The notes under the pieces were generated by a model that saw nothing but the letters and a program-made list of their open reading frames with translations, was not told where the DNA came from and ran no database searches. From positions 1 to 62,628 of the forward strand of contig JACOYE010000013.1 of NCBI GenBank assembly GCA_016182045.1: a DNA stretch of 62,628 nucleotides, in the 5' to 3' direction. This document shows positions 2 to 41,167 of the stretch, one piece after another; position 1 is the first letter of the stretch, and each line of letters opens with the position of its first letter. This stretch comes from Candidatus Microgenomates bacterium (GTDB lineage Bacteria > Patescibacteriota > Microgenomatia > Daviesbacterales > UBA10151). Both the position numbers and the translations under genes were made by a program.

Positions 2-385
2 AGGATAAAAACAGAATATCAGCACAAAGACATAATCCATAGTGGTTTTATCAGTGATGAAGAATTGGTGGCCCTTTATAAAAATGCTTTATGTTTTGTC
101 ATGCCTTCTTTTGAGGAAGGGTTTGGCATTCCGCTTTTAGAAGCCATGGCTTGTGGATGCCCTGTGGTTTCCTCAAATGCTGCTTCTTTGCCTGAGGTAG
201 GAGGAAATGCAGCAATCTATTTTGATGCACACGATCCGACCGATATTGAGCATAAGATTGATATGGTATTAAAATCAGAAAAAATTAGAGCGAATTTGAT
301 AGAAAAAGGACAAAAAAGATATAAACAGTTTAGCTGGGAGAAATTAGCAAAGCAAACTTTGGAGGTATACGAAAGATGCGTGTAG
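2..385 (+). CDS. GT4 (GT-B fold) glycosyltransferase, C-terminal part, 5' end outside window
   Basis: Frame is open from base 2. Motif PSFEEGFGIPLLEAMACGCPVVSSN is the GT4 C-terminal signature. Confidence 0.92.
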   Translation, partial: RIKTEYQHKDIIHSGFISDEELVALYKNALCFVMPSFEEGFGIPLLEAMACGCPVVSSNAASLPEVGGNAAIYFDAHDPTDIEHKIDMVLKSEKIRANLIEKGQKRYKQFSWEKLAKQTLEVYERCV

Positions 386-495
386 CCATAGTTCATGATG
401 ATTTAGTCCAGTGGGGTGGGGCTGAGCTGGAGGTATACGAAAGATGCGTGTAGCCATAGTTCATGATGATTTAGTCCAGTGGGGTGGGGCTGAGC
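360..495 (+). repeat. Perfect 68-bp tandem duplication spanning the stop/start junction of two GT4 genes
   Basis: 360-427 is identical to 428-495 (TGGAGGTATACGAAAGATGCGTG...GGGGCTGAGC). Confidence 0.97.
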
Positions 496-4695: not shown

Positions 4696-4745
4696 TGTTC
4701 TCGCTACTCGCTCGAACAATAATATTCTTCGAACATAGTGAGAAG
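4696..4745. repeat. Imperfect inverted doublet of short hairpin (REP-like) units
   Basis: GTTCTCGCTACTCGCTCGAACAA followed by TTCTTCGAACATAGTGAGAAG, whose reverse complement CTTCTCACTATGTTCGAAGAA resembles the first unit. Confidence 0.5.
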
Positions 4746-4759
4746 TTACCATAAAGACT

Positions 4760-6175
4760 ATGAACAATAACTTGATGGACAAGATTGTGGCCCTTTGCAA
4801 AAGAAGAGGGTTTATATATCCTGGTTCTGAAATATATGGGGGCTTGGGAGGAACTTGGGACTGGGGACCACTTGGAGTGGAAATGAAAAATAACATTAAG
4901 AAGATTTGGTGGAAAGATGTGGTCCAACTAAGGGAAGATATGGTGGGAATAGATTCCGCCATTATGTTAAATCCGAAGGTATGGGAAGCCTCAGGTCATG
5001 TAGCTGCATTTGCCGATTTTCTGGTTCAATGTCGGACATGTAAGGGAAGATTTAGAATTGACGAACTTGGTTTAGATAAATTTTATAATCCAAACACGCA
5101 AATTTTGGAATTCAAAAGCTATGAAGAGCTGGGTGATATTAATTGTCCAGGAGGTGGCCATAAGTTTGAATTTGATCTCATTGGCGAAGACGATGCAATA
5201 GGATCCGGGCTTAAAGAAGTTAAGATCAAACCACACAAGTTCAATTTATTAGTTCCAGCATATCTGGGAGTCTTAGAAGACAGAAAGCAGCTTATCTATC
5301 TTAGAGGAGAAATTACTCAAGGAGTACATATTAATTTCAAAAATGTTTTAGATTCCACCAGAGTAAAAATTCCTTTTGGAATAGCTCAAATTGGTAAAGC
5401 CTTTCGAAATGAAATCACTCCTGGAAATTTTACTTTTAGATCTCGGGAATTTGAGCAAATGGAAATTCAGTATTACATCAAGCCCCAAGAGCCTGAAGAT
5501 AAAAAGTGGTATGAGTATTGGAAAAATTTCTGGATGGATTGGTATGCTAATTCGGGGATTAAAAAGGAAAATTTGCGCTTTAAAGATCATGAAGAAGGCC
5601 AAAGAGCTCATTATGCCAAAGTAGCAACAGATATTGAATATCAGGCTCCCTGGGGTTGGGCTGAATTTATGGGTATACATCACAGGGGTGATTGGGATTT
5701 ATCCCGTCATCAGCAATATAGTGGCCAGAGTATGAAGTATAAAGATCATGAGACAGGCGAAGAATATACGCCTTTTGATATTGAATCATCAGCAGGAGTG
5801 GATAGATCAGCCTTGTTTTTCCTAATTGATGCTTACTCTGAGGAAAATGGTAGGATTATACTTAAACTTCATCCAAAAATTGCCTCATACAAAGTAGCTG
5901 TATTTCCACTCCTTGCTAATAAGCCTGAGTTAGTAAAAGTTGCACATAAGATTTACCAGGATCTCAAAAAGGATTTTATGGTTGCCTGGGATGACAGGGG
6001 AAATATTGGTGGAAGATATGCCAGCCAAGATGAGATTGGCACTCCATTTTGTATCACAGTGGATTTTCAAAGTTTAGAAGATGAAATGGTCACAGTTCGA
6101 GATAGGGATAGCGCAAAACAGGAAAGAGTTAAAATAGTTGATTTAACAGACTATCTTCATGGTAAGATAGAATAG
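4760..6175 (+). CDS. glyQS: Glycyl-tRNA synthetase, alpha2 (eukaryote-like) type
   Basis: KRRGFIYPGSEIYGG, GKAFRNEITP, FRSREFEQME, IESSAGVDR and an anticodon domain DEIGTPFCITVDF. Confidence 0.95.
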   Translation: MNNNLMDKIVALCKRRGFIYPGSEIYGGLGGTWDWGPLGVEMKNNIKKIWWKDVVQLREDMVGIDSAIMLNPKVWEASGHVAAFADFLVQCRTCKGRFRIDELGLDKFYNPNTQILEFKSYEELGDINCPGGGHKFEFDLIGEDDAIGSGLKEVKIKPHKFNLLVPAYLGVLEDRKQLIYLRGEITQGVHINFKNVLDSTRVKIPFGIAQIGKAFRNEITPGNFTFRSREFEQMEIQYYIKPQEPEDKKWYEYWKNFWMDWYANSGIKKENLRFKDHEEGQRAHYAKVATDIEYQAPWGWAEFMGIHHRGDWDLSRHQQYSGQSMKYKDHETGEEYTPFDIESSAGVDRSALFFLIDAYSEENGRIILKLHPKIASYKVAVFPLLANKPELVKVAHKIYQDLKKDFMVAWDDRGNIGGRYASQDEIGTPFCITVDFQSLEDEMVTVRDRDSAKQERVKIVDLTDYLHGKIE

Positions 6176-11480: not shown

Positions 11481-11595
11481 GCACAAAGGCTATCCAAAAT
11501 CCGCAGGTGTAAACGTATTCCACCCCAAGGGTGTAAGTGTAAGAATATACCATAAAATTGCTCCAAATTGAGTAAGTTTGGTTCTATCTGATATA

Positions 11596-11625
11596 TTGAC
11601 AAGAAATAAGGTGAAGAGTTATATT
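11596..11625 (+). promoter_or_regulatory. Sigma70-type promoter for the small DUF2795-like gene
   Basis: TTGACA (11596) -18 bp- TATATT (11620). A purine-rich AAGGAAGGGGGTGA RBS-like tract lies before the ATG. Confidence 0.75.
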
Positions 11626-11657
11626 TTCTCAGACCATAAAGGAAGGGGGTGAGAAAA

Positions 11658-11876
11658 ATGCAAAATGTTGCTTCAGCAATTGATCACCTAAAAACACATC
11701 AGACTTATCCAGCAACCAAAGCTCAGCTGGTGGCAGAATGTAACAACTTGTCCGATTTTTCAGAAGAGGATAAAACAGAGTTTGCTCAAAACCTTCCAGA
11801 AGGTAGCTACAACTCTGCTGATGATGTTGTAAAGGCACTGGGTTGGCAAACTCAACAACCACAACAAGCGATGTAG
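11658..11876 (+). CDS. Small helical protein, DUF2795/MTH865-like
   Basis: YPATKAQLV...LPEGSYNSADDVVKAL matches the YPA(T/S)K..L..LP...Y.S..DV pattern of DUF2795. Has its own promoter and RBS. Confidence 0.75.
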   Translation: MQNVASAIDHLKTHQTYPATKAQLVAECNNLSDFSEEDKTEFAQNLPEGSYNSADDVVKALGWQTQQPQQAM

Positions 11877-11908
11877 CCTAAGGGGAAACTTCTGTTATAA
11901 TAGGCTCA

Positions 11909-24553: not shown

Positions 24554-24600
24554 AAAACCTATAGTTTGAATTTGTAACTTCTTGTTGTAGAATACCTTCT

Positions 24601-25011
24601 ATGACTAGTGTAGAAAACCCAAATGAGATGTCTAAAGTGTGTACCTTAATTCTTTGTCTGAAAATGATCAGAGGAATGTGACTTAGTTCATAGATTTTAT
24701 GACCTCGATGAGAGGGACATTAGGAAGCATTAGGATAGCAATTTTAGCAGTTGGTAGCTCAACAAAGTCAGAAGAATTAAGAGAGCATCCAGTGAGAGAT
24801 ATTGATCTTCTAATTCTTAACTCTGACCCACATGGATCTGATGTTCGGTACGGAGTAGGCAGACAAATTAAGGGTTTGATAAGAAAGTTTCTTGAAAGTA
24901 GGTTCTACTTTACTTAGAAGATGACATGACATTTGGATGAGCAGATTACAAATGAGAGGAGAGAAAAAAGATACTTTAGTGTATTATATGAAGATTGATT
25001 CATCTAAATAA
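24601..25011 (+). pseudogene. Decayed nucleotidyltransferase-fold gene
   Basis: AVGSS...RDIDLLIL (GS..DxD) in 24699-24917. Upstream in-frame TAG at 24684, a frameshift near 24638, and further fragments to 25011. Confidence 0.5.
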
Positions 25012-25041
25012 ACCCCTTAAGTAAGGCTTCCATTAGAATAT

Positions 25042-25073
25042 TGACATTTTTAACCGATCGGCGGAAAATGTCA
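25042..25073. repeat. 32-bp palindromic site, left copy, overlapping the promoter of the PaaX-like gene
   Basis: TGACATTTTTAA-CCGATCGG-CGGAAAATGTCA. TTGACA at 25041 and GAAAAT at 25064 are 17 bp apart. Confidence 0.9.
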
Positions 25074-25078
25074 ATAAT

Positions 25079-25711
25079 ATGGATGAAGAGAAAATTGATA
25101 AACTTGCCAAGGTTTTAAGTAAACAAATCGATAAAGAAATCTTTGAAAGAAAGTATGCGCCAATCCGTGAAGTTTTAAAATTAGTTGGCGCAGGCGCTTT
25201 TCTAGCAGCTACTATTGCAATTCCCAACTTACCTTTAGCACTTAAGCCTTTTCTTAATTACAAAAGAAAAAATGAGATGAAAGCATGGAAAAGGTTTAAT
25301 ATCCCGTATCTTAAGAGAGCTATACAAAGATTAGAGAAACAAAAGTTGGTGGAGATAGATGTACAAGACGGCATCCAAATTGTCAAAATTACAAATCAAG
25401 GTAGACAAAAAATAATTAAATTTGCTTTAGATGAGTTAGAAATAAAAAAACCTAAGATCTGGGATAGGAAATGGAGACTAATAAGTTTTGATTTACCAGA
25501 AAAACTGGTAAGGATTAGGAAAATTTTGGTAGAATACCTTATTGCTTGGGGATTTTACCCACTGCACAAAAGCGTTTATCTCCATGTCTATCCTTGTCTT
25601 AAAGAAGTGGACTTCTTGAGAGAATACTTAGGAGTAAGCAAATATATTAGAGTTTTTGTAGTAAGTACCGTTGAAAATGATGAGATATTTAAAGATTACT
25701 TTGGTGTATAG
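25079..25711 (+). CDS. PaaX-like protein: winged HTH plus Cas2-like (ferredoxin-fold) domain
   Basis: LKRAIQRLEKQKLV...ITNQG (wHTH), then WDRKWRLISFDLPE...GFYPLHKSVYL (PaaX central / Cas2-like). Confidence 0.88.
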   Translation: MDEEKIDKLAKVLSKQIDKEIFERKYAPIREVLKLVGAGAFLAATIAIPNLPLALKPFLNYKRKNEMKAWKRFNIPYLKRAIQRLEKQKLVEIDVQDGIQIVKITNQGRQKIIKFALDELEIKKPKIWDRKWRLISFDLPEKLVRIRKILVEYLIAWGFYPLHKSVYLHVYPCLKEVDFLREYLGVSKYIRVFVVSTVENDEIFKDYFGV

Positions 25712-25715
25712 CTAG

Positions 25716-25747
25716 TGACAAAAATAACCGATCGGCAAATTTTGTCA
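25716..25747. repeat. 32-bp palindromic site, right copy
   Basis: TGACAAAAATAA-CCGATCGG-CAAATTTTGTCA, starting 5 nt after the stop codon. Confidence 0.9.
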
Positions 25748-25873
25748 AAAATTTTATAATTGCTCAAGAATACCGCGCCCTTTCACGGGTGGGGAAGATT
25801 CATTTTAATGGTATATTATATTTCTAATCAGTTGCTAGTCTCTGATTTCATATTCTGATAAAATATCTCCATT

Positions 25874-37370: not shown

Positions 37371-39863
37371 TCACAACTTTTCCAAAGCATCATGCATTTG
37401 CTTTGTGGATTCTTCATATGGGGCATCTTTAGCAAATGTTAAGGGTTTGCCAACTTTAATCCAGATCCTTTTTCTTTTTTTGGGTAGATTTTCGATAAAC
37501 TTTCCCTCCATAGATGGGAAAATCTCCATATATTTGGGATCAATTTTTATAGGGACAACCGGGACTTGGCATTCTGTTGCCAAGAGGCCAATACCAGGTT
37601 TAAATTCCAAAAGGCTACCATCCTCTGAAAAGGTTCCTTCGGGAGCCATCAGAATGGAAAATCCTCTATCTAAAAATTCACCTGTTAACTCTAAGGATGC
37701 TTTGACTTTTTCTTCTTTATCAAAAGGAAAAGCGGCGCCAAAGATTTCTATAAAAAAGCGGCGCCACTCTTTCCAAAGATCAGCACTTACCACAATGACC
37801 AGTCTTTCCCTTATCTTTTGTGGTAACACCCGTAACACACACAATCCGTCCATAACGGCGATGTGATTAAAATAAAAAATTGCGGGAAGTTTTAAATCTT
37901 TTAAGTTTTCCTTACCCGATACTTCTATAGGAACAAAGATGTTATGGAGCGGGAATACCAGAAGTTTTTGCAGCAATGTTCGGATTATCATTGTTTGAGA
38001 AGCATAGAGAAATTCATTTATGGGAATTTCCTCAATAGTTTCAGGCGCATCTTTAATTAATCGCCTAAGATCTTTTAAAGAAGTTTGCGGGCTAATTTTT
38101 ATCTCAGAAATTGCCACTGCAAATTTTTGTTCAATTGAAGACAAAAGTTCCACTCTGCCCAAGGAGTCAATTTTAAGGTCGGTGCCTAAGGTAGACGTTT
38201 CTTTTATTTTTGAAGAAGAGATATGGGTGATTTGGGAAATTATGGAAATCAGCTGGTCTTGTGATTTAACCTCTTCTGATCTCTTGTCGCCTTTATGGCT
38301 TCTCGAAGAGACGGCCAGCGTCACTTTTTTTCTATCAATTTTTAAGATCGGAGTTCTTGGGAAATCTTCACCTTGCCATATACTCCATTCCAAAATTTGC
38401 TCATGGGAAGCAAGTTTTTGATTGATATCGCGGATGATTGTATCAAGTTTACTGGGATATTTGGTAATGATTGCAGCATGAACTGTCTCGCCTTCTTCTC
38501 GTTTTACACCAATAACACAAGATTCTGAAACCAAAGGATGAGCATTTAATTTTTTCTCCAAATCCTCTGGATAAACTTTTCTTCCATCAGGTAGGACAAT
38601 TCTGAAAGCCTCACGGCCCGTGATGTATAAATAGCCATTCTTATCAAGCTTCCCAACATCGCCTGTTCGGTACCAGCCATCGCAAAAGGCTGCTTTGGTT
38701 TTTTCCTCATCCTCAAAATAGCCGAGAGAAATGTTAGGACCATGTGCTTCAATCTCATGAGTTTCTGGATTTATCCGGACTTCCATCTTTGGTAGGATTT
38801 TACCCACAGACCCCAAGTGCCTGGCGGATGGAGTATTGATTGTTAAAGCCGCCGTTGTCTCGGTCGCCCCATATCCTTCAAAAATCTCAACTCCCAATGC
38901 CTCCCATTTTTGGGCCAGTTTTAGATCAAGGGGAGCAGAACCAGAGCCAAAAAACTTTAACTTTCCACCCAAATTTTGGTGAATCTTTGAAAAAAGAAGA
39001 CGCCTTAGAAAGACGGGTAAGATTGGTGCGATACGGTTTGCCATTTGAAACTGTGCTGTTTTGCCATCTTCAGCCACTCGCCGCTCGATTCCATTCATCA
39101 ACAGTCGAAGGACTTGCGGTACCAGAGCAACAGAGGTGATTTTGCTTTTGCGCATGGTCTTCAGAATAGTCAAAGTATTGATCCTTTCAAGATAGGTTAC
39201 TGTAATGCCGGATTGGAATGGTGCCAAAAAATCAACCACTTGCTCAAAAGCATGGGATAAAGGTAATAAAGATAAGGCATGCCACTCTTTTTTAAATGGG
39301 AAAGCTTTTGTGAGCGCTTCAACATCGGATAAGAAATTGCCATGAGTTAACATTACTCCTTTGGGAGTACCTGTGGTACCAGAAGTAAAAGCAATTTCTG
39401 CCAAATCATTTTGGTAGGTAGCTGGTAGTGGGTAGTGGATAGTGGGTAGTAAATGAACAAGGTCGACCAGATCTTCTAAACGAAAACTTTCTTTAACTAA
39501 TCTTCCGAAACTACCAGGGATAAATTTTCCCTTAAAACCTATCTGACATTTAGCCTTTTCCAAAAAGATTTTGAGTGTTTCTTCTGTAGTGCGGATATCA
39601 ATAGGGACTGCAACAGCCCCCATAAGCCATATACCAAAGTACAAAATAGGGTACTCGGGCATATTTGGGGCCCAAATAACCACTTTATCTCCCTTTTTAA
39701 GACCCTTTTGCTGTAAAAATGTGGCTGTTTTGAGTGAGAGTAGATAGATATCCTCAAAACTAAATCTTTGTGTTCTCAAACCACGTTTAATCTGATAGGC
39801 AATTCTATCTTGATATTTTTGCGAATTTTCCTTTAAAAACTCACCAAGATTTTGCATTTTCAT
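37371..39863 (-). CDS. Acyl-AMP ligase + acyl carrier + PlsC-type acyltransferase fusion (Aas-like, reversed domain order)
   Basis: FTSGTTGTPKG, GYGATE and YRTGD (ANL). IDSLGRVEL (ACP Ser). FNHIAVMD and PEGT (acyltransferase). Confidence 0.9.
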   Translation of the reverse strand: MKMQNLGEFLKENSQKYQDRIAYQIKRGLRTQRFSFEDIYLLSLKTATFLQQKGLKKGDKVVIWAPNMPEYPILYFGIWLMGAVAVPIDIRTTEETLKIFLEKAKCQIGFKGKFIPGSFGRLVKESFRLEDLVDLVHLLPTIHYPLPATYQNDLAEIAFTSGTTGTPKGVMLTHGNFLSDVEALTKAFPFKKEWHALSLLPLSHAFEQVVDFLAPFQSGITVTYLERINTLTILKTMRKSKITSVALVPQVLRLLMNGIERRVAEDGKTAQFQMANRIAPILPVFLRRLLFSKIHQNLGGKLKFFGSGSAPLDLKLAQKWEALGVEIFEGYGATETTAALTINTPSARHLGSVGKILPKMEVRINPETHEIEAHGPNISLGYFEDEEKTKAAFCDGWYRTGDVGKLDKNGYLYITGREAFRIVLPDGRKVYPEDLEKKLNAHPLVSESCVIGVKREEGETVHAAIITKYPSKLDTIIRDINQKLASHEQILEWSIWQGEDFPRTPILKIDRKKVTLAVSSRSHKGDKRSEEVKSQDQLISIISQITHISSSKIKETSTLGTDLKIDSLGRVELLSSIEQKFAVAISEIKISPQTSLKDLRRLIKDAPETIEEIPINEFLYASQTMIIRTLLQKLLVFPLHNIFVPIEVSGKENLKDLKLPAIFYFNHIAVMDGLCVLRVLPQKIRERLVIVVSADLWKEWRRFFIEIFGAAFPFDKEEKVKASLELTGEFLDRGFSILMAPEGTFSEDGSLLEFKPGIGLLATECQVPVVPIKIDPKYMEIFPSMEGKFIENLPKKRKRIWIKVGKPLTFAKDAPYEESTKQMHDALEKL
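39423..39450 (-). repeat. Heptamer array (TAGTGGG-like x4) inside the ligase CDS
   Basis: TGGTAGTGGGTAGTGGATAGTGGGTAGT, encoding LPTIHYPLP. Confidence 0.7.
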
Positions 39864-41167
39864 TTTAGCTCATCTGATAATTTATAGCCCTTGATGAAAA
39901 TTAAGAATCCAATGAGGGTGGCAAAACCTGCAATTGGTCCAATCAGACGAATGCCTAATGAATGAGTAGTGGTGGCTCCGAAGAGTGATAGAGAGGTGCC
40001 AAATATTAAACTTGATAAAGCAAAGGAAAATTTTTGCAAGGTATTTTGCATGCCATAATATATGGCTTCACGTCTAAGTCCTGTTTTTGTTTCGTCATAA
40101 TCTATCACATCCGCCAAAATGGCATTAGGGAAAACAAATTGGCCGGCAAGAGCTATTCCAATTAGAGCTACCAAAATAAATGTTTGAATAATCGGGGTGG
40201 TTAGGGGAATAAGTCCTACAAAAGCAAGCAGTGGAAAAAGCAGGGAAAGGGTAAACATGGAGCGGGAATAGGCCCATTTTTTACCATAGATTTTTGCCAA
40301 AAGATTGTGAGCTGGTAAAGAGATGACCATGCTGGTTAAGAGTATGCCCATAAACAGCGCCACCCATCCTTCAGAAAGATTAAGAACGATTGTGGTATAA
40401 AAGGGTACCAAAGCGGTTAAAAGATTAAGACCCAAAGAGAAAAGGATAAAAGCAAAAGAGAATACTAAAAATTGTTTGTTTCTTAAGGTAGCAATTAATG
40501 CCTGATAAAGATTTAAATTTTTGACAATTTTCCGCTCGAGGAGAATTTTGTCAATTTTCTTCCTGATTCCCAAAATGGCAATCCAAAAGGCAATAAGTCC
40601 GATAATTCCCAAACTTGCGCCCATTGCCAAAAAACCAAACCGCTGGATTAACAGAGCGGATCCAACAAGACCTATCCCAGCCCCAATTACCCCGAAGAGC
40701 ACTCTCCATGCAGAGGTTGAGACCCGATCTTTGGATGTTTTAGCAATCTCTGGCAAAATGCCCTCATAAGGTGCGGATACTATGGTATAAGTTAAGAAGA
40801 AAAACTGTAGGACAATGAAAAAATAAATGGCATTTATGGTGGTCTGATTTGGGGTTGGAGAAAGCCACAACAGAAAAAAACTTAAAGCTAAAAAGGGTGC
40901 CCCCAAAAATATATAAGGGAATCTTCTGCCCCAGCGGGATTTTGTTCTATCAGATAAATGACCAATTAAAGGATCATCAAAAGCTTCAATAAATCTACCG
41001 ATACCCAAAAGAACTCCTAAAAGGCCCAGTGGAATTAACGCCTTATTTGGATCACCCCTGCCTGCCCAAAAGAAGATCAACCAAGCAGTTAGGGCCTGAA
41101 AAGTGACATTTTCCCCCAAGCCACCTATGGCAAAAATTATTTGATCTTTAACTGGTAGACTTTTCAT
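39860..41167 (-). CDS. MFS transporter, GPH/MelB (MFS_2) family
   Basis: EAFDDPLIGHLSDRTKSRWGRRFPYI and ADVIDYDETKTGLRREAIYYG. About 12 TM segments. Confidence 0.92.
   Translation of the reverse strand: MKSLPVKDQIIFAIGGLGENVTFQALTAWLIFFWAGRGDPNKALIPLGLLGVLLGIGRFIEAFDDPLIGHLSDRTKSRWGRRFPYIFLGAPFLALSFFLLWLSPTPNQTTINAIYFFIVLQFFFLTYTIVSAPYEGILPEIAKTSKDRVSTSAWRVLFGVIGAGIGLVGSALLIQRFGFLAMGASLGIIGLIAFWIAILGIRKKIDKILLERKIVKNLNLYQALIATLRNKQFLVFSFAFILFSLGLNLLTALVPFYTTIVLNLSEGWVALFMGILLTSMVISLPAHNLLAKIYGKKWAYSRSMFTLSLLFPLLAFVGLIPLTTPIIQTFILVALIGIALAGQFVFPNAILADVIDYDETKTGLRREAIYYGMQNTLQKFSFALSSLIFGTSLSLFGATTTHSLGIRLIGPIAGFATLIGFLIFIKGYKLSDELK

Follow-up and report, generated by a model that had tools for sequence, protein, structure and literature searches.

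PaaX is a repressor of Escherichia coli and Pseudomonas that responds to phenylacetyl-CoA. The E. coli protein binds the operator TGATTC(N27)GAATCA, and steric hindrance is the way in which it represses its own promoter (PMC9493321). As of a 2022 review, no complex of a PaaX-type protein with DNA had been solved (PMC9493321). In CPR bacteria, very few recognisable regulators are found, and almost none with a known binding site. In this regard, a gene from a Candidatus Microgenomates bacterium encodes a protein for which PaaX is the best fold match, with a winged helix followed by a Cas2-like domain corresponding to the middle domain of PaaX, and in both systems short inverted repeats with a wide spacing lie over the regulator's own promoter, here in the form TGACA-N22-TGTCA and with predicted binding. 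The CPR protein differs from PaaX in having only 210 aa, without the C-terminal effector domain, and there are no paa genes nearby. Moreover, its half-sites are spaced by 22 nt instead of 27, the sequence between them has a conserved, symmetric centre, and the family keeps a second operator right after the stop codon together with a leaderless mRNA. Our search of the literature on PaaX, PaaX-like families and Cas2-like winged-helix proteins found nothing on this CPR family. We propose, with a probability of roughly 0.6, that the gene encodes an autoregulated minimal PaaX-type repressor, which would bind as a dimer to 34-bp operators flanking its own gene.

The gene lies in a contig of 62,628 nt (JACOYE010000013.1, assembly GCA_016182045.1; Daviesbacterales, UBA10151), which was analysed over its whole length and is referred to here as the window. 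Its neighbours are ftsA, ftsZ, ileS and ftsW, no CRISPR-like repeat array was found in the window, and no cas1 gene is among the open reading frames listed for the 22-29 kb interval that surrounds it. A first-pass annotation had described two 32-mers around the PaaX-like gene, and both are in place, TGACATTTTTAACCGATCGGCGGAAAATGTCA on the left (25042-25073) and TGACAAAAATAACCGATCGGCAAATTTTGTCA on the right (25716-25747), with the ATG 5 nt past the former and the stop codon ending 4 nt before the latter. The 12-mer common to both, TAACCGATCGGC, has exact matches in the window at those two places only, and an independent repeat search returned a 40-nt direct repeat with a spacing of 674 nt as well as an inverted repeat with 19-nt arms. 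The natural unit of the site, however defined by 32-mers at the start, is a 34-bp sequence of the form TTGACAAA-N18-TTTGTCAA (Table 1). Such sites are rare, since TGACA-N22-TGTCA occurs three times in the window against 0.07 expected, a number reached by none of 100 shuffles. A weight matrix derived from the sites of other genomes and then scanned over the 62.6 kb gave high scores to the same three sites, with 4.6 bits for the next-best position of the window and 10.5 for the best one in shuffled sequence, which leaves exactly three sites.

Table 1. Position of the PaaX-like gene, its predicted operators and related features in the window
Feature	Position	Strand	Remarks
Segment present in this lineage, from the ftsZ stop codon to the conserved ileS leader	24554..25845		Absent from two relatives
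Upstream 34-bp dyad operator (predicted), TTGACATTTTTAACCGATCGGCGGAAAATGTCAA	25041..25074		Weight matrix 28.1 bits; holds promoter
Gene of the PaaX-like protein, 210 aa	25079..25711	+	ORF between both 32-mers; PaaX_M match
Downstream 34-bp dyad operator (predicted), GTGACAAAAATAACCGATCGGCAAATTTTGTCAA	25715..25748		Weight matrix 33.3 bits; starts 4 nt after the stop
Candidate outward ileS promoter, TCGGCA-17-TATAAT	25732..25760	+	10/12 hexamer matches; proposed from the hexamers only
Third predicted operator, TTGACAATTTTCCGCTCGAGGAGAATTTTGTCAA	40521..40554		Weight matrix 36.6 bits, best in window

The PaaX/Cas2-like fold that had been suggested for the protein was confirmed by a match to Pfam PaaX_M (PF20803, Cas2-like) over residues 127-200 (E 2.3e-14, 53.6 bits against a cut-off of 24) and by structural comparison of an AlphaFold model, for which the best Foldseek match was E. 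coli PaaX (8a39, E 3.3e-4), followed by lower matches to Cas2 proteins, Rv0674 and 3l09, with 3kfw also listed. The TM-score is low (0.34), because the orientation of the domains is uncertain and the model has a pLDDT of 70. The protein begins with N-terminal helices, continues with the winged helix, whose recognition helix spans about residues 75-87 and includes R80, and ends with the Cas2-like ferredoxin-fold domain (about 127-205), where D138, E141 and K164 are found. Asp138, invariant in the family and placed at the end of strand 1, would align by HMM coordinates with the metal-binding Asp of Cas2. The full-length PaaX equivalog (TIGR02277) reached only 18 bits against a cut-off of 264.55, and the N-terminal PaaX wHTH (PF07848) and C-terminal PaaX_C (PF08223) domains gave no match, as Pfam at E<=1 gives only PaaX_M, a weak GntR and a weak Cas2. 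The chain stops at residue 210 and therefore leaves no room for a C-terminal ligand or effector domain. The match to Pfam Cas2 is below threshold (11 bits against 23.8), and that of PADLOC to Cas2 (E 8.5e-4) covers residues 132-168 only. Membership of a defence system was also considered and rejected, the PADLOC matches to Cas2, WH and Csa3 being all sub-threshold. No transposase, HUH/Y1 or recombinase domain was detected in the protein with Pfam, NCBIfam or PADLOC. A hydrophobic stretch (residues 33-57) was examined as a possible membrane anchor; helix 1 of the winged helix is favoured for this region, which presumably resembles the N-terminal pattern of PaaX and where the model is of low confidence.

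A comparison of 75 distinct homologous loci of Microgenomates (CPR) showed that the sites belong to the gene family. An upstream site was recovered at 60 of 62 loci, a downstream one at 60 of 65, and the full pair at 46 of 53. Across 505 kb, about 120 high-quality sites were counted, nearly all of them adjoining a member of this family. Distant paralogs have palindromes of their own, with different arms and a different recognition helix, so that the idea that homologs carry their own flanking pairs held both in the family and in this distant subfamily. Every contig contains one copy of the site-bearing family. The gene contexts elsewhere are formed by unrelated housekeeping genes, with no synteny of the PaaX-like gene among the first ten loci. 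At several loci (L002, L006, L074, L075 and L078) the next gene downstream is convergent, and the downstream site is thus intrinsic to the cassette rather than to the neighbouring gene.

The left site contains the promoter of the bracketed gene, as the first-pass annotation had proposed. The promoter scan placed a -35 TTGACA at 25041-25046 and, after a 17-nt spacer, a -10 GAAAAT at 25064-25069, with the ATG 10 nt past the -10, which makes the mRNA effectively leaderless. In the family logo of the upstream copies, T1T2 are kept (~95%), as are T24 A25 ... T29, giving TTGACA-N17-TAnnnT, and among the 50 distinct upstream sites with an in-frame ATG, the first one lies 2-5 nt past the site in 31. 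The downstream site also has promoter-like hexamers on both strands, and the candidate ileS promoter of Table 1 overlaps the right half of this operator.

The symmetry of the sites is that of double-stranded DNA. Complementary cells across the site amount to 82.7%, against 66% in shuffles and 35-43% in register-shifted controls, and the covariation score of 0.418 (0.136 in shuffles) was not reached by any of 500 shuffles. The innermost position pairs, 16/19 and 17/18, covary without a bias for G.T over A.C, and 46 of 57 upstream and 50 of 55 downstream sites have a self-complementary tetranucleotide at the centre. A symmetry running through the exact centre is that of a duplex, not of an RNA hairpin. 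Selection on symmetry had thus been correctly recognised, although what is selected would be a duplex read by a dimer and not a hairpin used in recombination.

A second kind of covariation links the protein with its sites. Among upstream and downstream sites, arm position 3 deviates only in L021 and L027 (CACA/TGTG) and in L049 (AACA/TGTT), and the substitution R80Q occurs in exactly these lineages, whereas the sister locus L018 keeps both R80 and GACA. The three sites of P0120, another protein with Q80, all read TTCACAAA...TTTGTGAA. This association of residue 80 with the arms comes from two independent lineages only; together with the precedent of PaaX, it backs the earlier suggestion that the protein of the gene itself binds the flanking 34-bp sites, which is probable. 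The centre of the site, in turn, shows a strong covariation with the Cas2-like domain, at residues 164 and 141. Here, a blind test of the residue-164 association with three E164 proteins gave the centres GGTC, GGTC and GATC, and the third site of the window has a TCGA centre despite K164, different from those of the flanking sites. With a mixed blind test and this exception, the rule that residue 164 specifies the central 4 bp is put forward only as a hypothesis.

Altogether, these data are best accommodated by an autoregulated repressor. The Cas2-like domain would most likely be a dimerisation module joined to the winged-helix DNA-binding domain, and the dimer would bind the two-fold-symmetric 34-bp operators, with the recognition helix, including Arg80, reading the GACA/TGTC arms at a centre-to-centre distance of 28 bp. 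In the upstream operator the -35 is formed by the left arm, and the other arm would fall between the -10 and the start of the leaderless mRNA; since operator and sigma-70-type promoter of the gene coincide here, binding would shut off the transcription of the gene. The downstream copy may be a second operator, involved in looping or acting as a protein roadblock or insulator, which is a guess on our part; either role would free expression from the influence of the surroundings, and would account for the joint movement of the gene and both sites. Some features fit less easily. A gene with its own operator on either side is a non-standard layout for a repressor, and half-sites 28 bp apart are on different faces of straight B-DNA, so that a wide dimer or bent DNA would be needed. 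Moreover, a plain dimerisation role leaves unexplained the invariant Asp138 and the strictly palindromic centres, which are similar to restriction sites.

The third site of the window, absent from the first-pass annotation, which had only the two flanking copies, suggests that further operators may define a small regulon. It is located inside the coding region for the central loop of an MFS_2 transporter gene (39860-41167, minus strand), which belongs to an operon for lipid scavenging encoding acpS, the transporter and an acyl-ACP-synthetase-acyltransferase. Orthologs of the transporter gene (L100 and L101) have a site at the same position, though the encoded loop peptide is hypervariable. These cells are lipid auxotrophs and would depend on such an operon, and one member of the putative regulon would be this intragenic site.

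Other explanations of the palindromes can be weighed on the same data. As RNA or single-stranded DNA hairpins, they would terminate transcription intrinsically, stabilise the mRNA 3' end or be REP-like elements, and indeed the sites fold at -8 to -12 kcal/mol (z-scores of -2.0 to -4.2) and the downstream copy is found at the 3' end of the mRNA. However, self-complementary central 4 nt and covarying pairs 16/19 and 17/18 are nothing that a hairpin loop can require, the absence of a G.T excess over A.C speaks against RNA pairing, and most of the upstream copy precedes the transcript start. The downstream RNA folds at only -8 kcal/mol with large internal loops and is followed by the tail AAAAATTTTATAA, with no U-tract and no call at this site in the terminator scan. 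We regard the hairpin reading as very improbable, and its RNA hairpin or terminator form is rejected on account of the covarying innermost pairs, the central 4 nt, palindromic in about 85-90% of sites, the lack of a G.T bias and of a U-tract, and the weak folding. It is also improbable that the palindromes are generic symmetric promoters, or sites of another conserved host factor of which the gene is merely a regulated target. The hexamers on both strands of each site would agree with this, and ordinary promoters of this genome are also of the TTGACA type (e.g., at 11597), but sites restricted to three in the window and almost entirely to one gene family, arm changes that coincide with a change in the recognition helix of this very protein, and the different arms and helix of the distant subfamily all argue for the protein itself as the reader. 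The least probable case is that of centromere-like or chromosome-organising sites, where the protein would be a ParB- or Noc-like organiser and not a gene regulator. The small number of sites in each genome, grouped around the gene of the protein, and the position of this gene in a cell-division cluster both in the window and in L007 are what such an organiser would show; against it, the gene context is not conserved, there is no linked partner NTPase, and a site that coincides exactly with the promoter of the gene and its leaderless start speaks for control of transcription.

A further question is whether the unit moves. The segment that this lineage has between ftsZ and ileS contains a 72-aa ORF (24699-24917) besides the bracketed cassette. 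In two relatives (L092 and L093), ileS follows ftsZ after 32-35 nt with no cassette between them, and their ileS leader aligns to the window from about 25846 onward. In L007 the cassette is found between ftsI and murE in the dcw cluster, where the window has a different small gene, and a diverged duplicate of the ftsI 3' end was recognised by eye beside it. Two inversions of the unit with respect to its flanks, L004 against L009 and L039 against L044/L051, have their breakpoints in the site-containing intervals; both separate genomes that are ~70-77% identical, and near-identical pairs are collinear with the gene in the same orientation. The proposal of a moving unit is partly upheld by the different loci in relatives, the uninterrupted ftsZ-ileS junctions and the inversions, but not as recent switching, and the empty site with a single 32-bp copy that it had predicted does not exist at the junctions of L092 and L093, which have no solo palindrome.

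A mobile, invertible or domesticated cassette, with the Cas2-fold domain as a metal-dependent nuclease or recombinase at the palindrome centres, in the way of a REPtron, a small IS or an integron cassette, would make sense of several facts. Both sites always travel with the gene through unrelated contexts, relocation took place within the conserved dcw cluster, the inversion breakpoints fall where the sites are, and a duplicate of ftsI accompanies the L007 cassette. Moreover, both sites of a locus have the same central 6-mer in 38 of 47 loci, compared with 12% between loci, L068 and L091 have additional sites around other genes, and Asp138 is invariant while the centre covaries with residues 141 and 164. 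We nevertheless consider it unlikely. The site-bearing family is single-copy per contig, protein divergence tracks that of the host (FtsZ 93% with protein 82%, FtsZ 88% with protein 62%), and no transposase, HUH or recombinase domain was detected. No target-site duplication or att-like repeats surround the cassette in the window, and flank duplications were significant in only 3 of 44 loci tested (L026, L078 and L079), besides the one seen in L007, so they are not a general feature of the cassette. A phage association was looked for with a motif scan of 2.9 million viral contigs, which gave two non-palindromic chance matches with no homolog nearby. The two similar palindromes are mutual inverted repeats, and occasional RecA-type recombination between them would be enough to produce the rare inversions as well as the homogenised centres, with no need of a dedicated enzyme. 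The nuclease or self-targeting activity that had been advanced is not supported, and nuclease or mobile-element activity is unproven. A specific form of it, in which the Cas2-fold domain sits on the dyad axis, reads the centre through residues 141 and 164, and nicks or exchanges strands with the pair of invariant Asp138, seems to us quite doubtful. If true, however, the cassette would represent a chemically new type of domesticated, REPtron-like element, with a minimal site-specific nuclease or recombinase of Cas2 fold that from time to time inverts or relocates the gene encoding it, and could hint at a role of Cas2-like proteins before CRISPR; in that case, with the Cas2-like domain acting on the site centre, the finding would be much more important.

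For the autoregulated repressor, sequence alone provides a lineage-wide regulator with a predicted operator at single-base resolution and a leaderless promoter design, a testable residue-to-base recognition rule (Arg80 with G3), and a first predicted regulon member in a lipid-scavenging operon. The operator at both gene ends, unusual for a repressor, suggests a portable and self-insulated regulatory unit, and the co-varying operators and proteins of the family are natural material for work on how PaaX-type dimers recognise long split operators.

The same ferredoxin-like fold relates the C-terminal domain of the CPR protein to Cas2, a subunit of CRISPR adaptation, and to related endoribonucleases such as VapD, but here it is fused to a DNA-binding domain, matches Pfam Cas2 below threshold and has no CRISPR array. 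REPtrons (RAYT plus REP) and IS200/IS605 elements offer a different parallel, that of a gene present once and inherited vertically, which lies between short imperfect palindromes that co-evolve with the protein and have a few extra copies elsewhere. They differ in their HUH/Y1 domain, for which the CPR protein has no counterpart, in having hundreds of sites instead of three per 62.6 kb, and in a single-strand hairpin with a free loop where the CPR sites show duplex symmetry through the exact centre. Integron attC sites are 57-141 bp long, and the CPR site is 34 bp, with no integrase gene or cassette array seen with it; likewise, the DDE, serine or tyrosine recombinases, target duplications and multiple copies of insertion sequences have no equivalent here. 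What the CPR cassette does share with IS terminal inverted repeats and attC is that the gene is enclosed by predicted sites of its protein and has its -35 within the terminal repeat, that the outer site is conserved around an inner part that is variable but symmetric, and that the gene forms a portable unit with its sites.

The two 32-bp palindromes between which the first-pass annotation had placed a PaaX/Cas2-fold gene were both recovered at the same coordinates, with an ORF of 210 aa enclosed. The exact 12-mer common to both (TAACCGATCGGC) is found nowhere else in the window, where the pattern TGACA-N22-TGTCA occurs three times against 0.07 expected, and an independent repeat search returned a 40-nt direct repeat, with copies 674 nt apart, together with an inverted repeat with 19-nt arms. 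The natural unit of the site is 34 bp long, TTGACAAA-N18-TTTGTCAA, and covers 25041-25074 and 25715-25748; a third 34-bp copy had been overlooked. In a scan of the window with a weight matrix trained on sites of other genomes, the three copies scored 28.1, 33.3 and 36.6 bits respectively, the third one being the top-scoring predicted operator of the window, with 4.6 bits at the next-best position and a shuffle maximum of 10.5. Altogether, the original observation is confirmed and extended.

Database relatives of the protein number 534, with 61-82% identity among the matches listed, which come from Gottesman-, Levy- and Daviesbacteria-type MAGs; 10 genome and 80 metagenome loci were retrieved for the comparison of sites. 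Among the 75 distinct loci of the main subfamily, the upstream site was found in 60/62 judgeable cases, the downstream site in 60/65 and both in 46/53, which bears out the earlier proposal that each homolog should have its own palindrome pair; loci scored as missing a site mostly hold degenerate copies visible by eye. The spacing between the two outer 8-mers (the arms) is always exactly 18 nt. In logos of the distinct sites (57 upstream, 55 downstream), G3 reaches 95%, A4, C5, A6, T29, G30, T31 and C32 reach 93-100% and C15 and G20 reach 93-98%; positions 13-14 and 21-22 vary but are G+C-rich, and the central four nucleotides vary. A distant subfamily (L081-L089, about 40% identity) lacks these arms and carries its own flanking palindromes with other ones (e.g., ATCTATC...GATAGAT, ACACTA...TAGTGT), together with a different recognition helix. 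The centres of these palindromes are of the CGC-TATA-GCG type, and two paralogs of this subfamily (L084 and L088) lie ~10 kb apart on one contig (Ga0233422_10000141). A short homolog in locus L009 ends after about residue 141, with most of the Cas2-like domain gone and the downstream palindrome abutting the premature stop codon; this could reflect either a deletion with one end at the site or an artefact of co-assembly.

Across 121 distinct sites, 82.7% of the symmetric position pairs are complementary, versus 66% with shuffled partners and 35-43% in register-shifted controls, and the covariation score is 0.418 versus 0.136, a value that none of 500 shuffles reached. Covariation extends to the innermost pairs (16/19 and 17/18), and 46 of the 57 upstream sites and 50 of the 55 downstream ones have a self-complementary central tetranucleotide, versus 6% expected. 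Pairing of these four bases is impossible in a hairpin, which excludes this reading; the symmetry is therefore two-fold and belongs to the DNA duplex, the kind that a symmetric dimer reads. Moreover, G.T mismatches are in no excess over A.C (34:27 and 18:15), RNA folding of the sites is weak (-8 to -12 kcal/mol), and no U-tract follows the sites, which a terminator scan leaves uncalled.

Departures from G3 (and C32) occur, among all upstream and downstream sites, in three loci only: L021 and L027, where both copies of each have the arms TTCACAAA...TTTGTGAA, and L049, where both read TAAACAAA...ATGTTTA. Arg80 of the recognition helix, otherwise invariant, is Gln in exactly these three lineages, and the sister lineage L018 keeps both Arg80 and GACA. 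The only Q80 protein among the database matches listed (P0120) has TTCACAAA...TTTGTGAA at all three sites of its locus and falls in the L021/L027 clade, which therefore implies two independent R80Q events, not three. Such a joint change of four to six arms and a single residue of the helix is to be expected if a regulator and its operators co-evolve.

Upstream copies keep T1T2 (about 95%) and T24 A25 ... T29, that is, TTGACA-N17-TAnnnT, positions that are less well kept in the more symmetric downstream copies; a promoter scan of the window called TTGACA-17-GAAAAT at 25041-25069. In 31 of the 50 distinct upstream sites having one, the first in-frame ATG lies 2-5 nt past the site (position 36-39), where transcription from that -10 is predicted to start, suggesting leaderless transcripts in most lineages. 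The predicted promoter of the gene is the upstream site itself; with one arm over the -35 and the other over the start region, a dimer bound there would keep RNA polymerase out. Autorepression by the gene product, as put forward in the first-pass annotation, is well supported by comparative evidence: promoter overlap, covariation between arms and residue 80, and the precedent of PaaX.

In 19 loci the downstream site starts at most 5 nt from the stop codon, and in 41 of the 68 measured the distance does not exceed about 32 nt. It is kept even where the next gene is convergent and is therefore intrinsic to the cassette, not to the neighbour. It may serve as an additional operator, either through DNA looping or by acting as a roadblock or insulator, which would free expression from its context and explain why the pair survived relocations. 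In the window, the site overlaps a candidate outward ileS promoter (TCGGCA-17-TATAAT, promoter scan), a feature of possible relevance given that ileS is cut off from ftsZ by the insertion; a role as antisense promoter is equally possible. Between this site and ileS there is a G+C-rich stem-loop (CCGCGCCCTTTCACGG), terminator-like on the minus strand, and directly 5' of the ileS start codon a short palindrome (ATATTCTGATAAAATAT in the window, ATATTCTGTTAGAATAT in L093), conserved with or without the cassette, which may be a separate control element of ileS. On the ftsZ side, a 72-aa ORF without Pfam match may be the remnant of a DUF5680 gene, since the closest relative has a 198-aa DUF5680 gene at this position. 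Elsewhere in the window, a perfect tandem duplication (68-bp unit, 2.0 copies, 100% identity) could be recent or an assembly artefact.

The central 6-mer is common to the upstream and downstream copies of a locus in 38 of 47 cases, versus 12% between loci. Centres differ by lineage (CGATCG, CACGTG, CCATGG, GCGGCC, CTCGAG, CAATTG, TGATCA), and non-palindromic ones (e.g., CAAA, TTTG) also occur, in the same orientation at both ends. The class of centre is associated with two residues of the Cas2-like domain, 164 and 141: GATC or GTAC centres are found with K164 plus E141, GGCC with Q164, and ACGT, CATG and TCGA with E164, mostly combined with K141. This association has a single clean sister contrast (L052 versus L053/L056) and is not strict, three blind-picked E164 proteins having GGTC, GGTC and GATC centres, and the third site of the window has a TCGA centre although the protein has K164. 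Two readings remain, namely contact of the Cas2-like dimer with the centre or homogenisation of neighbouring copies by recombination.

The third site falls within the part of an MFS_2 transporter gene that encodes the central cytoplasmic loop; this gene is flanked by the holo-ACP synthase gene (acpS) and an 830-aa acyl-ACP-synthetase/acyltransferase gene, the three forming one operon. The loop peptide is hypervariable across 62 orthologs, yet two of them, L100 (1022-1055) and L101 (4593-4626), have a high-quality site at the same position in the gene (TTGACAAAATACCGCTCGAGCGGAAAATTGTCAA and TTGACAAAAATAGACGGCCGTCAAATTTTGGCAA, respectively) with different centres. At this position, the peptide follows from the DNA site and not vice versa, and the transporter gene is a predicted regulon member. 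In five loci, extra sites lie close to the cassette and bracket other genes or precede them. Among these genes are one for a 155-aa membrane protein in L068, DUF5674 and a small ORF in L091 and what looks like fmt in L059, and the extra sites have the same centre as the local cassette sites.

Cassette neighbours, named from translated ORFs and not from database searches, vary by genome: a ribosomal-protein operon, an apparent AlkD-like gene, yebC plus a TPR gene, the dcw cluster or glycosyltransferase-like genes. The FtsZ of the window organism groups with Microgenomates/Daviesbacteria-like CPR bacteria. In two relatives (L092 and L093; FtsZ 88% identical), ileS follows ftsZ after 32-35 nt with no site at the uninterrupted junction; the single 32-bp copy that the first-pass annotation envisaged at an empty locus is absent from both. 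A third relative has three other genes there, and the closest one (FtsZ 93%) has ftsZ, DUF5680, cassette and next gene, as in the window. The FtsZ of L092 is identical to that assigned by NCBI to Microgenomates bacterium Gr01-1014_7, in a contig of which (L007) the cassette lies between ftsI and murE, next to a divergent repeat of the 3' end of ftsI; the window has there an unrelated small gene. This interval in the window holds a 75-aa ORF resembling DUF2795 by eye, with its own TTGACA-type promoter at about 11597. Moreover, the cassette is inverted with respect to conserved flanks in L009 versus L004 and in L039 versus L044/L051. A 327-aa ORF, Fic-family-looking by eye, is upstream of the cassette in L069, downstream in L078 and L079, which keep a similar fragment on the opposite side, and absent from L074.

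Altogether, these comparisons indicate that the cassette has moved during evolution. The varying neighbours, the empty ftsZ-ileS junctions and the two inversions would also suit the mobile self-targeting element with a Cas2-fold nuclease that had been proposed, but the marks of an active element are absent: there is no target duplication around the cassette in the window, flank duplications are rare among the loci compared, each contig has one copy, near-identical genomes are collinear with no orientation difference, and the divergence of the protein parallels that of FtsZ. Neither was a recombinase or transposase domain detected in the protein (Pfam, NCBIfam, PADLOC), nor a link to viruses in viral contigs. 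Past relocation and inversion thus stand, whereas the active element and its nuclease are not supported, though conceivable. Since similar palindromes such as these two form inverted repeats of one another, homologous recombination between them, even if rare, would suffice to account for the inversions and the shared centres alike.

Positions of the cassette, its sites and associated features
Feature	Sequence	Position	Strand	Remark
Left 32-mer	window	25042-25073		upstream of ORF
ORF, 210 aa	window	25079..25711	+	between both 32-mers
Right 32-mer	window	25716-25747		downstream of ORF
MFS_2 transporter gene	window	39860-41167	-	houses third site 40521-40554
Tandem duplication	window	360-495
ftsI-murE interval	window	11481-11908		75-aa ORF 11649-11876
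72-aa ORF	window	24699-24917		between ftsZ and cassette
Stem-loop	window	25773-25788
Pre-ileS palindrome	window	25850-25866
Pre-ileS palindrome	L092	6166-6184
Pre-ileS palindrome	L093	6173-6189
Cassette between ftsI and murE	L007	3879-4860		diverged ftsI repeat (last ~55 nt) at about 4727-4785
Short homolog	L009	3758-4285
327-aa Fic-like ORF	L069	1-826
327-aa Fic-like ORF	L078	5749-6732
327-aa Fic-like ORF	L079	1302-2285
Extra sites	L068	814-1421
Extra sites	L091	3741-4539
Extra sites	L059	2214-2247 and 6401-6434
Extra site	L050	399-432
Extra site	L078	4512-4545

In Pfam, the single match of the 210-aa protein above threshold is to the Cas2-like central domain of PaaX (E 2.3e-14, residues 127-200), GntR and Cas2 being below threshold; it scores 18 bits with the NCBIfam PaaX profile, whose cut-off is 264, and its PADLOC Cas2 match has an E of 8.5e-4. 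In the AlphaFold model, with a pLDDT of 70 for the whole chain and of about 90 for the C-terminal domain, helices are followed by a winged helix (H66-73, H75-87 and a wing of two strands), a linker helix and a ferredoxin-like domain. The PDB entry that the model matches best is 8a39, the PaaX of E. coli; next come numerous Cas2 structures, along with the PaaX-like Rv0674 and 3l09. Profile scores and structural matches therefore make it a distant two-domain relative of PaaX without the C-terminal effector domain. It is neither an ortholog of PaaX nor a Cas2 of the CRISPR type, and no CRISPR array is present in the window. In the literature on PaaX-like and Cas2-like winged-helix proteins, this family was not found characterised. 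PaaX of E. coli binds TGATTC(N27)GAATCA, likewise a pair of short inverted half-sites separated by a long spacer, and represses the promoter of its own gene sterically (PMC9493321). The cassette gene is a variation on this PaaX-type repressor theme, with a self-bracketing layout that is unusual and conserved.
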